Below are positions 9,578 through 61,545 of a stretch of 64,000 nucleotides of DNA, piece by piece. Source of the stretch: Escherichia coli (GTDB lineage Bacteria; Pseudomonadota; Gammaproteobacteria; Enterobacterales; Enterobacteriaceae). Within the stretch, counting starts at the first letter, position 1; each line of letters opens with the position of its first letter. The position numbers and the translations under genes were made by a program. The DNA is taken from NCBI RefSeq assembly GCF_002854065.1, contig NZ_CP024147.1; one strand, given 5' to 3'. The notes beneath the pieces are model-generated. The model did no database searches. It saw only the letters and a program-made list of their open reading frames with translations, and was not told where the DNA came from.

Positions 9578-10852
9578 TTAACCCAGTAACGTGCGCAAAT
9601 GCGCGGCTACGCTATCCTGCGCAACTGCCGTTTGCTCACCAGAGCGCAAATCCTTCACTACTGCTGTGCCGTTAGCCACTTCAGACTCACCCAGCACCAC
9701 AGCAACGCGGGCACCCCATTTATCAGCACGGGCAAACTGTTTCTTAAAGTTGCCGCCGCCGTGGTTGGTCATCAATTTCACGCCCGGTAATTCATCACGC
9801 AGACGCTCAGCTAATGCCATAGCCGCAGATTGTGTATCAGCACCTGAAGCCACCAAGTATATATCGACAACAGGATCGGCTTTAAATTCCGGATTAACGG
9901 CCTGTACTAACAATACAAGACGTTCGAGGCCCATCGCAAAACCGACAGCCGGTGTTGCACGACCGCCCAGTTGTTCCACAAGACCGTCATAACGACCGCC
10001 TGCACACACGGTGCCCTGGGAGCCGAGACTGTTAGTCACCCACTCGAAAACGGTACGGTTGTAGTAATCCAGACCACGCACCAGACGCTGGTTTACGGTG
10101 TAAGCGATCCCCGCGCTCTCAAGCAGTTTGCACAGACCAGCAAAGTGCTCACGAGATTCCTCGTCCAGATAATCACCTAATGCCGGAGCGTCGTTGAGAA
10201 GCGCCTGCACTTCCGGATTTTTTGAATCCAGCACGCGCAGCGGGTTAGTGTACATGCGGCGTTTGCAGTCTTCGTCCAGCTTTTCTTTATGCTGCTCAAG
10301 GAATGCCACCAGCGCATCGCGGTAATTGGCGCGTGCTTCCAGCGAACCGATAGAATTCAGCTCAAGAGTTACGTGCTCGGAAATACCCAGCGCGCGCCAC
10401 CAGCGGGCGGTGAGCATAATCAGTTCAGCGTCGATATCCGGACCTTGCAGACCGAAAACTTCGCAGCCCAACTGATGGAACTGACGATAACGCCCTTTCT
10501 GCGGACGCTCGTGACGGAACATCGGCCCGATATACCACAGACGCTGTTCCTGATTGTACAGAAGACCATGCTCGATGCCGGCGCGTACACAGCCCGCCGT
10601 CCCTTCAGGGCGCAGAGTCAGGCTGTCGCCATTGCGATCCTCAAAGGTGTACATCTCTTTTTCAACCACGTCGGTGACTTCACCAATCGCACGTTTGAAT
10701 AGCGGGGTCTGCTCTACAATCGGCAAGCGGATTTCACTGTAACCGTAGCTGCCGAGCACGTTTTTCAGTGTGCCTTCAATGCGCTGCCAGATGGCCGTTT
10801 CGCCAGGCAGGTAATCGTTCATGCCGCGAATGGCTTGAATGTTTTTTGCCAC
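9578..10852 (-). CDS. hisS: Histidine--tRNA ligase
   Basis: ORF track 424 aa (first codon GTG); class II aaRS motifs; [18 protein letters not shown].. matches HisRS. Confidence 0.95.
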
Positions 10853-10854
10853 GT

Positions 10855-10950
10855 TTATTCTCTTTCTGAATATAAAAATGAACCCTCAACGCTTCCCTCA
10901 ATGTTTGGGGAGCCATGCGGGTTCAATCATACACGGGAAGCGAGGCGCTT
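10855..10950 (-). ncRNA. sroE: Candidate SroE-type small RNA / structured element in the ispG-hisS spacer
   Basis: 110-bp spacer between ispG stop and hisS start contains a perfect 8-bp-stem hairpin (gggaagcg-cct-cgcttccc on the minus strand) and other structure; an sRNA called SroE is reported at this position in K-12 (recollection). Ends not determinable from sequence. Confidence 0.4.
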
Positions 10951-10962
10951 CCCATCACGTTA

Positions 10963-12081
10963 TTATTTTTCGACCTGCTGAACGTCAATTCGACGCGCTT
11001 CGTCCAGCTGACTGGCTTTCGCACGAATGCGTGCTTCCAGCTGGTCGATCATATCGTTGTTGTCCAGACGGTCTTTGCGCACGCCATCTTCATAGAGGCC
11101 GCTTTTCTTGTTGCCGCCGGTGACGCCGAGTGTAGAAACCAGCGCCTCACCCGGGCCATTCACCACGCAGCCGATAATCGAAACGTCCATCGGAGTGATG
11201 ATATCTTCCAGGCGTTGCTCCAGCGCGTTAACCGTACCGATAACATCAAACTCCTGACGCGAACAGGTCGGACAGGCGATGAAGTTGATACCTCGCGAAC
11301 GGATACGAAGCGATTTCAAAATATCGAAACCGACTTTGATCTCTTCGACCGGATCGGCCGCCAGTGATACGCGCAGCGTGTCGCCGATGCCTTCAGACAG
11401 CAGCAAACCTAAACCAATGGCGGATTTTACTGCCCCGCTGCGCGCGCCACCCGCTTCGGTGATCCCCAGATGCAGCGGCTGATCGATTTGTTTTGCCAGC
11501 AAACGATAAGACTCAACAGCGAGGAAGACGTCAGACGCTTTCACGCTGACTTTGAACTGATCGAAGTTCAGGCGATCGAGATGATCAACATGACGCATGG
11601 CGGATTCCAGCAACGCCTGCGGCGTCGGTTCGCCATACTTTTCTTGCAGATCTTTTTCCAGCGATCCGGCGTTAACGCCAATACGGATCGGAATGTTTTT
11701 ATCGCGCGCACAGTCAACCACCATGCGAATACGCTCTTCATTACCGATATTGCCAGGATTAATACGCAGACAATCGACGCCGTATTCCGCTACTTTCAGC
11801 GCAATGCGATAGTCGAAGTGGATGTCAGCCACCAGCGGCACGTTAACCTGCTGTTTGATGAGTTTGAACGCTTCTGCCGCGTCCATCGTCGGTACAGATA
11901 CACGGACGATATCAGCGCCAACGCGTTCCAGCGCCTTGATTTGATTGACCGTTGCTTCGACGTCTGTCGTACGCGTATTGGTCATGGACTGTACGGCGAT
12001 GGGAGCACCATCGCCAATCGGCACATTCCCAACGTAAATACGTGTTGATTTTCTACGTTGAATTGGAGCCTGGTTATGCAT
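10963..12081 (-). CDS. ispG: 4-hydroxy-3-methylbut-2-enyl diphosphate synthase IspG (GcpE)
   Basis: ORF track 372 aa, [39 protein letters not shown].. ; MEP-pathway enzyme. Confidence 0.95.
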
Positions 12082-23731: not shown

Positions 23732-23865
23732 GTTGAAATACTCTCTTTTATGCCTGGCTGTGTCAAGATAATAAACAGAGTAATTATTCAAACATGAGAG
23801 TATTATTCTTAATGGCCCTTTTCGCCGTCTCGCAAACGGGCGCTGGCTTTAGGAAAGGATGTTCC

Positions 23866-23961
23866 ATGACCGTAAATACAGGCACCCCACAGTGCTTGCT
23901 ATCGCGGCAATATCGCCAGTGGTGCTGTCGTGATGCGGTCTTCGCATGGACCGCACAATGA
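23866..23961 (+). CDS. Leader ORF (31 codons) with strong SD, translationally coupled to the downstream toxin-like ORF
   Basis: AGGAAAGGA 6 nt upstream of ATG; MTVNTGTPQCLLSRQYRQWCCRDAVFAWTAQ; its TGA stop overlaps the ATG of the next ORF (caATGA). Codons 5-10 coincide with the 16-nt antisense target. Coding status is inferred. Confidence 0.4.
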   Translation: MTVNTGTPQCLLSRQYRQWCCRDAVFAWTAQ

Positions 23962-24083
23962 AGATACGGTGCTTCTGTATCGTACTTATTGTTTCTGGTG
24001 CGCTGTTAACCGAGGTAAATAATAACCTGAGTCTCTCCGGCAACAATTTACTGGTGGTTAACAACCTTCAGAACAGCAGGTAA
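23958..24083 (+). CDS. Small hydrophobic toxin-like protein (41 aa), TimP/RyfA-type candidate
   Basis: MKIRCFCIVLIVSGALLTEVNNNLSLSGNNLLVVNNLQNSR; no own SD, start overlaps leader stop; identical amino-acid sequence in copy 2 with a single synonymous difference, whereas flanking DNA differs at many positions. Confidence 0.5.
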   Translation: MKIRCFCIVLIVSGALLTEVNNNLSLSGNNLLVVNNLQNSR

Positions 24084-24113
24084 GCCCGAATGCCGCCCTT
24101 TGGGGCGGCATAT

Positions 24114-24197
24114 TTAGATTATCCGATTCTGTTTAAAGTCACGCAAAAAACCACCCCAGCGACGTTCATAGAATGGCGCAATATGTTCGATATTAAA
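24114..24197 (-). pseudogene. Detached duplicate of the sseB 3' end (last ~25 codons plus stop)
   Basis: Minus-strand translation gives ..IEHIAPFYERRWGGFLRDFKQNRII*, identical to the C-terminus of the intact sseB at 24796-24880; no upstream coding continuation. Confidence 0.65.
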
Positions 24198-24311
24198 ATG
24201 ACCTGGCTTATTAGTCCGAATTCAGACAAATATAAACAAATCCCGCTCAATATTAAAAATACTAACCGGTAAAAGATATTACTTAAACATGTAAATTCAC
24301 TTTCTTTAAGC

Positions 24312-24415
24312 AACAAAAAACCGCCAAAATCAGGCGGTTATTTGTTGCCGGTTTGGTTCGCGGCCTCTCCAGCAGATTGACTTGTGTTGCATGAGCAACG
24401 CAGGTGCTTCACAGC
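24312..24415 (-). ncRNA. Candidate antisense sRNA of ryfA copy 2 (TimR/RyfB-like)
   Basis: Minus-strand promoter -35 TTGACA (24445-24450), 17-bp spacer, -10 GAATAT (24422-24427); 5' region complementary to caggtgcttcacagc (24401-24415), matching the copy-2 leader site caggtgtttcacagc (24560-24574) with one G-U wobble; terminator hairpin at 24318-24345. Confidence 0.45.
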
Positions 24416-24546
24416 AGAGCAATATTCGCCAGCAACTCTCTTTTTGTCAAGCAAAAGAGAGTAATTATTGTTTATTTAGCGTATTATCGACACCGGCCCT
24501 TTCCGCCGTCTCGCAAACGGGCGCTGGCTTTAGGAAAGGATGTTCC

Positions 24547-24642
24547 GTGGCCGTAAATGCAGGTGTTTCACAGCGCTTGCTATCGCGGCAATATCGCCAG
24601 TGGTGCTGTCGTGATGCGGTCTTCGCATGGACCGCACAATGA
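24547..24642 (+). CDS. Leader ORF of copy 2 (GTG start), coupled to the toxin-like ORF
   Basis: Same SD AGGAAAGGA; GTG instead of ATG; five amino-acid differences in the first 10 codons, all inside the antisense target; stop overlaps the next ATG. Confidence 0.35.
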   Translation: MAVNAGVSQRLLSRQYRQWCCRDAVFAWTAQ

Positions 24643-24764
24643 AGATACGGTGCTTTTGTATCGTACTTATTGTTTCTGGTGCGCTGTTAACCGAGGTAAA
24701 TAATAACCTGAGTCTCTCCGGCAACAATTTACTGGTGGTTAACAACCTTCAGAACAGCAGGTAA
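24639..24764 (+). CDS. Small hydrophobic toxin-like protein (41 aa), copy 2
   Basis: Same protein as copy 1 (MKIRCFCIVLIVSGALL..), one synonymous change (TTC to TTT). Confidence 0.5.
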   Translation: MKIRCFCIVLIVSGALLTEVNNNLSLSGNNLLVVNNLQNSR

Positions 24765-24795
24765 GCCCGAATGCCGCCCTTTGGGGCGGCATATT

Positions 24796-25572
24796 TTAGA
24801 TTATCCGGTTCTGTTTAAAGTCACGCAAAAAACCACCCCAACGACGTTCATAGAATGGCGCAATATGTTCGGTAATAAAGTGGCTAATTCCTTTTTCCCC
24901 TTTTTTCACCTGACAAATATCGATTGGTTCATCGCCAGGTAATGTATCGGTCGCTACACTTCCCGCCGCCTGAATAATTTCTTCGATATCACCATCGGCT
25001 TCAATGCCAATAAGTAAATTAGGCTGTGCCTCTTCGTTCTCTTTAATTGAACATATAAAAGCACGCTTCACCGGCTTAATAGTTTTAAATAAGGTGGTGA
25101 GTGAATCAATCATTTGTGCTGGCGGCTCTGCGACTTCCGATAATATTAGCGATTCACCGCCTTCCAGTACTTCCTGGCTACTCAGCGGATTCCCTTCTTC
25201 ACCAATCAACAAACTGATTTCACGCGGCATAAATTCTTTACCGGTTGGCAGTTTGGCATTAAGGAAGAGCGTTTCGCCAAGGGTCATCTCAAACAATGTG
25301 CGAACGGGCATTACTACAAATGCCTGTTCGTCTTCAACCGCCTGTTGAAGTGCTTCTAACGAGGTAAAAAAAGGAATGACGCTGGTGCCGTCTTCTTTTT
25401 CCCAATGCTGTAAATCAAGCGCACTATCTTCAACCACAGCCTCGCCCTGCGCCGCCGTACCAGGCACCCAGACGGTGGATCCCAGTAGAGTACGGAAAAA
25501 GGCCGGGCGGTGCGCCGGTTCGGTTGCTGCTTTTTCCAGCAGGTCTTCAAGTTCGTTTTTTGTTTCGGACAT
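24796..25572 (-). CDS. sseB: Protein SseB (enhanced serine sensitivity)
   Basis: ORF track frame 24796-25581; conserved start MSETKNELEDLLEKAATEP at ATG 25570-25572 (258 aa). Confidence 0.9.
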   Translation of the reverse strand: MSETKNELEDLLEKAATEPAHRPAFFRTLLGSTVWVPGTAAQGEAVVEDSALDLQHWEKEDGTSVIPFFTSLEALQQAVEDEQAFVVMPVRTLFEMTLGETLFLNAKLPTGKEFMPREISLLIGEEGNPLSSQEVLEGGESLILSEVAEPPAQMIDSLTTLFKTIKPVKRAFICSIKENEEAQPNLLIGIEADGDIEEIIQAAGSVATDTLPGDEPIDICQVKKGEKGISHFITEHIAPFYERRWGGFLRDFKQNRII

Positions 25573-32052: not shown

Positions 32053-32163
32053 TGCTCTATAAACTCCGTACATCACTCAATGCAAGGAACCAGGCTACCG
32101 GCTGGATGTACGACCGTGTTTACGGAGTATTTAGCACTCCGGCCTGATTCTGAATTCTTTTTA

Positions 32164-61360: not shown

Positions 61361-61545
61361 CAACAAAGCCGGGAATTACCCGGCTTTGTTATGGAATAAG
61401 GCGGTGCCTAACTCGACGTTTCGCCCGATGGTTGATATAGCTACGCTGATATCAGAAGTTGGACGGCAGGCACCTTGTTGTGCGTCATTCGAATTTTATG
61501 TAGCACGTCCCGAAGGGGCTGACATAAGTCGGTGAATGAGCCACT
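61361..61545 (-). ncRNA. glmY: Small RNA GlmY
   Basis: Minus-strand sequence AGTGGCTCATTCACCGACTTATGTCAGCCCCTTCGGGACGTGC...AAAGCCGGGTAATTCCCGGCTTTGTTG matches my recollection of GlmY (about 184 nt); terminator hairpin at 61365-61387 plus U-rich tail; sits 58 bp upstream of glrK. Confidence 0.85.

Follow-up and report, generated by a model that had tools for sequence, protein, structure and literature searches.

The window analysed here, a stretch of 64,000 nucleotides of Escherichia coli DNA, carries ispG and hisS next to each other on the minus strand, separated by a spacer of 110 nt at positions 10853-10962 (Table 1). The remaining intergenic distances of the same-strand cluster rodZ-ispG-hisS-yfgM-bamB amount to just 10-26 nt (rodZ-ispG 26 nt, hisS-yfgM 17 nt, yfgM-bamB 10 nt) and thus the ispG-hisS spacer stands out. 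A first-pass annotation of the sequence had drawn attention to exactly this interval as an unusual spacer in a tightly packed operon, and the ORF coordinates and the neighbouring gaps agree with it in full. Using a 451-nt query around the spacer we found matches in 5425 of 5426 complete E. coli genomes, and a 113-nt stretch is present as a single copy at an identity of at least 95% in 5425/5426. At the hisS translation start the arrangement AGAGAA...ACGTG is kept across the Enterobacterales.

Table 1: Features of the ispG-hisS spacer and its borders, given in window coordinates and in the order of transcription.
Feature	Position	Strand	Remarks
ispG	10963..12081	(-)	ORF; stop codon TAA 10965-10963, the last base of which is the annotated 5' end of SroE
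SroE small RNA, 92 nt	10872..10963	(-)	5' end at the last ispG stop codon base, 3' end in the U-run that follows hairpin 2
-35-like hexamer TGGGAA (3/6)	10949..10954	(-)	weak, putative; located in the hairpin 1 5' arm, with 17 nt between it and TATGAT
Hairpin 1	10935..10953	(-)	perfect 8-bp stem: GGGAAGCG (10953-10946), loop CCU, CGCUUCCC (10942-10935)
-10 hexamer TATGAT (5/6)	10926..10931	(-)	in the single-stranded linker between the hairpins, 7 nt upstream of the transcription start site
Hairpin 2, 47 nt	10879..10925	(-)	basal stem UGAACCC/GGGUUCA around a variable, self-complementary interior; putative intrinsic terminator
Transcription start site (G)	10918	(-)	SroE position 46; site of Kim et al. 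2012 mapped to the window by sequence
Sole difference from K-12 SroE	10907	(-)	C in the window against G in K-12 (alignments); located in the hairpin 2 apical part
U-run UUUUUAU	10872..10878	(-)	directly 3' of hairpin 2; SroE 3' end (Rfam and K-12 boundary)
hisS translation start	10850..10864	(-)	Shine-Dalgarno-like AAGAG (10864-10860), 7-nt gap, GTG (10852-10850)
hisS	9578..10852	(-)	ORF; start codon GTG 10852-10850

The spacer is the already catalogued sroE locus and adds no new element. SroE reportedly goes back to a discovery paper by Vogel et al. from 2003. The first-pass annotation had suspected an SroE-type sRNA at this place and had named an Rfam search as the way to check it. We searched positions 10700-11100 on both strands against all 4227 Rfam families (E <= 1) and obtained a match to RF00371 (sroE) on the minus strand that covers the model positions 1-92 of 92 with 113.1 bits and E = 2e-27, well above the curated gathering score of 51 bits. 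The suspicion is further borne out by the record of K-12 MG1655, in which the ncRNA sroE (b4761) is annotated at the corresponding place, and both the ORFs and the K-12 annotation place it between ispG (gcpE) and hisS in the orientation of these two genes. The SroE sequence in the window is identical to K-12 sroE at 91 of 92 positions and has the locus, the strand, the boundaries and the two-hairpin structure in common with it. For K-12, secondary sources report SroE as a discrete RNA of about 90 nt. On the opposite strand a sub-threshold sroE match at 10836-10932 (+) was observed (20.5 bits, E = 0.023), which results from the palindromic nature of the hairpins and not from a second gene.

Elsewhere in the window, the ryfA region is tandemly duplicated at 23812-24797 (+), where two full-length ryfA matches of about 315 bits each (23812-24116 and 24493-24797, both on the plus strand) flank a match to the IS128 RNA at 24147-24357. 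K-12 presumably carries a single ryfA. The remaining Rfam matches above cut-off in the window are ES036 at 2351-2393 (+), the iscRS stability element at 32054-32163 (-) and GlmY at 61398-61545 (-).

The spacer RNA of the minus strand folds with -42.4 kcal/mol compared to -24.0 +/- 3.4 kcal/mol for 200 dinucleotide shuffles, none of which was as good (z = -5.41, 0/200), and the 92-nt SroE stretch gives a z of -5.61. The fold contains two hairpins, and the minimum free energy structure adds a few more pairs to the 8-bp stem of hairpin 1. The perfect 8-bp-stem hairpin and the further secondary structure that had been read from the sequence beforehand are therefore real features of the predicted fold, at a z of about -5.5. 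Because the hairpins are palindromic, the plus strand of the spacer reaches a comparable fold (z = -5.72), so the fold alone cannot tell the strand, which we took from the gene orientation and the Rfam match. RNA from position 10918 onward is ordinary in structure (z = -0.22).

Position 10918 is where a transcription start site falls within SroE. Table S1 of Kim et al. 2012 (PMC3415461), which is based on 5'-triphosphate enrichment, contains a start site at 2638663 (-) in NC_000913.2 that is assigned to sroE and supported by 6 reads in this single data set. The upstream 51-mer printed for this site ends with ...GTGTATGATTGAACCCG / ...GCTTCCCGTGTATGATTGAACCCG. In Table S2 of the same work the triphosphate start site of sroE bears the flag 'upstream'. 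This disagrees with the sequence as printed, and we placed the site by the sequence and not by the flag. Read in this way the start is preceded by a -10 hexamer matching the consensus in five of six positions, and according to our own calculation a hexamer of at least 5/6 occurs by chance at 6-8 nt from a start site with a probability of about 1.4%. The 7-nt discriminator TGAACCC is at the same time the 5' arm of hairpin 2, and the resulting hisS 5' UTR has a length of 66 nt (10918-10853). The same tables report another start site inside ispG, 377 nt upstream of the hisS start codon, at 2638974 in the old K-12 coordinates with 4 reads, which corresponds to about 11229 (-) in the window according to our own conversion.

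A consensus promoter scan of the window did not call the spacer, TGGGAA and TATGAT together matching 8/12 positions under a rule of 9/12. Coordinates 2638662-2638664 and 2640640-2640642 are absent from the Cappable-seq supplement, and literature searches for a hisS promoter and for start sites at hisS and ispG gave no result. Two further promoter candidates were rejected. The promoter TTGAAn-N18-TATAAT of other families (see below) is absent from E. coli, which has CGTTGA at the corresponding hexamer, and TATATT at 10873-10868 is without a -35 element, would leave a leader of about 12 nt and is not accompanied by a reported start site. The spacer appears to hold both the stop signal of ispG and the start signal of hisS. 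The first-pass annotation had recognized SroE correctly and had missed the nested hisS promoter.

To compare the locus between species we compiled 80 loci from a HisS scan with one genome per species, each with ispG as the immediate upstream neighbour of hisS. The block TGGGAAGC-N5-GCTTCCCGTGTATGATTGAACCC is almost invariant and of constant length in 21 species of Enterobacteriaceae, with the discriminator being 1 nt shorter in one clade. None of the 23 Enterobacteriaceae loci lacks TATGAT, not even the two with large insertions, and the distance of this hexamer to TGGGAA is a constant 17 nt in every locus free of insertions. The stem sequence of hairpin 1 is invariant in 20/21 Enterobacteriaceae, the remaining one showing a compensatory change from G-C to U-A; as the stems are nearly invariant, covariation inside the family is minimal. 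Also kept in Enterobacteriaceae is GGGTTCA followed by a run of T5-T8 directly after the stem. In hairpin 2 the conserved basal stem encloses 6-35 nt that defy alignment between genera, and the hairpin still beats its own versions with shuffled interior in all 20 species (z from -0.35 to -2.89). It is compact in Enterobacter, where the terminator scan called it in the one locus scanned (Enterobacter asburiae, L008). Among seven E. coli strains and E. albertii polymorphisms are confined to the hairpin 1 loop and the hairpin 2 interior and spare the hexamers, the stems and the T-run. The Rfam cut-off for sroE is reached in Enterobacteriaceae only.

Insertions of about 75-300 nt break the SroE homologue or the hisS leader in four loci (L006 1316-1500, L054 1261-1500, L048 1256-1500 and L076 1090-1500). 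In Pseudocitrobacter the insertion lies inside hairpin 1, where TGGGAA is displaced and ATGACG forms a new -35-like hexamer, and in Klebsiella sp. it sits in the interior of hairpin 2. Both of these loci stay below the Rfam cut-off, with 36.8 and 26.6 bits. Photorhabdus and Yersinia thracica have insertions at the SroE homologue or hisS leader as well. The inserted sequences resemble ERIC/IRU repeats.

In the other families of the Enterobacterales the same synteny is found with a different promoter. In Yersiniaceae, Pectobacteriaceae, Hafniaceae, Morganellaceae and Budviciaceae the hisS promoter is of the near-consensus form TTGAAn-N18-TATAAT. Its usual distance from the hisS start codon is 34-38 nt, and in most of these families CGG(G)TTCATTTTTT comes after it (loci L022, L025-L029, L031-L033, L036, L040, L041, L044, L045, L047-L053 and L076, with the site about 30-100 nt before position 1501 of the locus). 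The promoter scan calls it in Serratia and Proteus, with a terminator-like hairpin 1 upstream of the promoter, and in Rahnella, Serratia and Pectobacterium it lies inside a long hairpin with a UGAACCC/GGGUUCA base. The predicted hisS leader of three Yersinia species (L031, L032, L076) contains an additional palindrome, …GAUGUUGCxGCCGACAxCGCUGCAACAUC…, with a length of about 60 nt, by which the distance from the -10 element to the start codon grows to about 97 nt. The spacers of Serratia, Yersinia, Pectobacterium, Proteus and others thus have in common with E. coli a terminator-like hairpin and then a sigma-70 hisS promoter, a T-run 24-32 nt before the start codon and AGAGAA...ACGTG, but their TTGAAn-N18-TATAAT lies inside or after hairpin 2 whereas TGGGAA-N17-TATGAT of the Enterobacteriaceae is located upstream of it. 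No sroE match was obtained in these families at E <= 1, and RNAalifold recovered no hairpin from the spacers outside Enterobacteriaceae, the 5' halves of which MAFFT could not align. A test of 7-mer arm complementarity was not used, as a 7/7 score arises by chance in about 15% of shuffles and the test suffers from register problems. Judged by these sequences, the general plan of the spacer is ispG, one or more predicted terminator hairpins, a putative hisS promoter, a T-rich leader and a weak Shine-Dalgarno sequence, with the place of the promoter varying by family. In Vibrionaceae and Orbaceae (L059-L075 and L077-L080) the ispG-hisS spacer is mostly 17-50 nt long and free of stable structure, which makes the structured spacer a feature of the Enterobacterales and suggests that co-transcription of ispG and hisS is the older arrangement.

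As for the ends of SroE, its 3' boundary lies exactly in the U-run after the stem of hairpin 2. In the window, hairpin 2 escaped the rule-based terminator scan, the loop limit of which is smaller than the 33-nt interior. The Term-seq tables of Adams et al. 2021 contain no 3' end in 2640500-2640699 (K-12 coordinates) and do include 3' ends inside hisS and inside ispG; this may point to inefficient termination at hairpin 2 or to a low abundance of SroE in the conditions used. At the 5' end of SroE no 5'-triphosphate start is given in the tables of Kim et al. 2012, in whose Table S2 the method labelled '5' monophosphate' is the only one with an end at this place, and a later paper places SroE among sRNAs processed from longer transcripts. 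A primary SroE transcript from a promoter in the 3' end of ispG (TTGACG-N15-AATAAT or TTGACG-N17-TAATAA, about 10988-10960) was considered and set aside as improbable, since spacing or hexamers are poor, the predicted start misses the 5' end of SroE and no triphosphate start site is reported there. Of the two origins that the first-pass annotation had offered for the RNA, the processed 3'-UTR fragment agrees best with the data, namely the monophosphate-only 5' end and the list of processed sRNAs, and the attenuator is not supported for the transcripts of hisS itself, as their mapped start falls within the terminator hairpin.

CpxQ and SroC are examples of 3'-UTR-derived sRNAs that are released by processing of the parent mRNA. 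Like such RNAs, SroE starts at the upstream stop codon, ends at a terminator-like hairpin, shows no primary 5' end and is associated with Hfq in one data set. It differs from them in having no validated target or seed and in that the same DNA also serves as promoter of the essential gene that follows, which means that the conservation of SroE is not attributable to the RNA alone.

Alternatively, ispG and hisS might be mainly co-transcribed and the hairpins might serve as processing or stability signals instead of terminating transcription, with SroE being cut out of the polycistronic RNA endonucleolytically at both ends. The listing of SroE among processed sRNAs, the lack of a reported Term-seq 3' end at the U-run and the short unstructured spacer of 17-50 nt in Vibrionaceae, which fits an ancestral ispG-hisS operon, would all be compatible with this. 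A processed 3' end should show up in Term-seq as well, however, and its absence favours neither reading. Moreover, the 3' end falls exactly into a U-run behind a stem, the Enterobacter orthologues are textbook terminators, and with a conserved promoter and a mapped start site in the spacer co-transcription is not needed. We therefore consider excision from a common transcript unlikely.

As the element always lies directly 5' of hisS, a terminator-like hairpin in front of an aminoacyl-tRNA synthetase gene, one could also think of a cis-acting leader or attenuator that tunes hisS to tRNA-His charging or histidine supply, with hairpin 2 as a conditional terminator. T-box and leader-peptide attenuators likewise sit upstream of tRNA synthetase genes and have a terminator-like hairpin before the coding region, transcripts reading through from ispG must pass the element before reaching hisS, and Barquist et al. 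2013, in whose Salmonella transposon libraries SroE came out as 'required', put forward a T-box-like element that regulates hisS in cis. In contrast to these systems, SroE is without an Rfam match of this kind, without a conserved His-rich leader ORF and without an obvious anti-terminator, and the hisS start lies inside the terminator. Neither T-box nor His-leader nor any other cis-regulatory Rfam family matched at E <= 1 within 10700-11100 on both strands, and a T-box or other riboswitch was rejected on this ground. The mapped start lies behind hairpin 1 and behind the hairpin 2 5' arm, so hisS mRNA from its own promoter cannot form the terminator; its leader from 10918 is no more structured than expected by chance and holds no complete terminator within the hisS 5' UTR. 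An alternative anti-terminator pairing was not noticed, the hypervariable interior of hairpin 2, reduced to a 5-nt loop in Enterobacter, leaves no room for a sensor, and the intolerance to insertions in Salmonella is already explained by the nested promoter. A leader peptide rich in histidine codons was rejected too: the only small ORF, AUG(10929)...UGA, encodes MIEPAWLPKH* with one His codon, is not preceded by a Shine-Dalgarno-like sequence and is not conserved, its counterpart being MIEPAWRPYCSG* in Citrobacter and having no stop before hisS in Enterobacter. Taken together, control of hisS by such an attenuator is very unlikely.

SroE could further be a trans-acting, Hfq-dependent sRNA derived from the ispG 3' UTR, whose linker GUGUAUGAUU or hairpin loops pair with target mRNAs. 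Its layout, in which a first hairpin is followed by an AU-rich linker, the terminator hairpin and a tail of U residues, is typical of Hfq-binding sRNAs, and it has been published among the 26 Hfq-associated sRNAs of cells starved of nitrogen for 24 h, which fits such a role better than that of a mere by-product. Mihailovic et al. 2018, who treated SroE as uncharacterised, observed binding of one of ten predicted targets (ligB) in EMSA; this binding was weak, and the other nine targets were not bound. According to published work, overexpression of SroE causes no biofilm, motility or fimbriae phenotype and its expression is unchanged across nutrient conditions. One paper records 'REP' in sroE, to which we gave no weight. 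With a trans-acting RNA the invariant sequence would reflect a seed region in addition to the promoter, which is compatible with the model described below, but the promoter and the two stems explain the invariant bases fully, and the linker sequence is not kept outside the Enterobacteriaceae. We regard regulation of mRNA targets by SroE as possible but rather doubtful, and infer that SroE is without a major trans function.

The model that we favour, with a probability of roughly two in three, combines a terminator of ispG with a nested promoter of hisS and sees SroE as a product of the ispG 3' UTR. Transcripts of ispG would form hairpin 1 and then hairpin 2 with the U-run, the latter two probably acting in vivo as intrinsic terminator and thereby setting the 3' end of SroE. 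The released tail would be trimmed or cleaved at the ispG stop codon, giving the 92-nt SroE, which could accumulate as it would be shielded by a hairpin at each end. The same DNA would serve as sigma-70 promoter of the essential hisS, with TGGGAA as the likely -35 element, TATGAT and a start at G10918. This start would lie past the 5' arm of hairpin 2, so that hisS mRNA would lack half of the terminator stem and would not be terminated. SroE would then most likely be a stable by-product, with a minor Hfq-associated role in trans being possible. In this model the arms of hairpin 1 and the linker are invariant because they carry the promoter hexamers and have to pair, the hairpin 2 interior is free to vary, and insertions in Salmonella sroE are not tolerated because the hisS promoter is nested there.

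In hisS mRNA made at the internal promoter, the weak Shine-Dalgarno sequence is closely preceded by GGGUUCAUUUUU, a 3' arm without its partner; the complementary UGAACCC arm is present in the RNAs that come from ispG, SroE among them. It is conceivable, and in our view highly improbable, that hairpin 2 acts as a conditional terminator and that SroE, read-through RNA, HisRS or tRNA-His exploits the complementarity of the two arms to couple hisS expression to ispG transcription or histidine charging. If true, enterobacteria would possess a novel mode of synthetase control.

In summary our analysis of the spacer is mainly a point of annotation, as it identifies the spacer as the known sRNA gene sroE. 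Much of the conservation of SroE and its 'required' status in transposon libraries can be explained by the promoter of the essential hisS in its hairpins, and a function of the RNA is not needed for this. As a caution, conservation or insertion intolerance of 3'-UTR sRNAs should not be equated with evidence of RNA function, and with the nested hisS promoter sroE cannot be deleted cleanly for its study. Finally, the shift of the hisS promoter between families around a conserved terminator-like hairpin and T-run represents a small case of promoter turnover.
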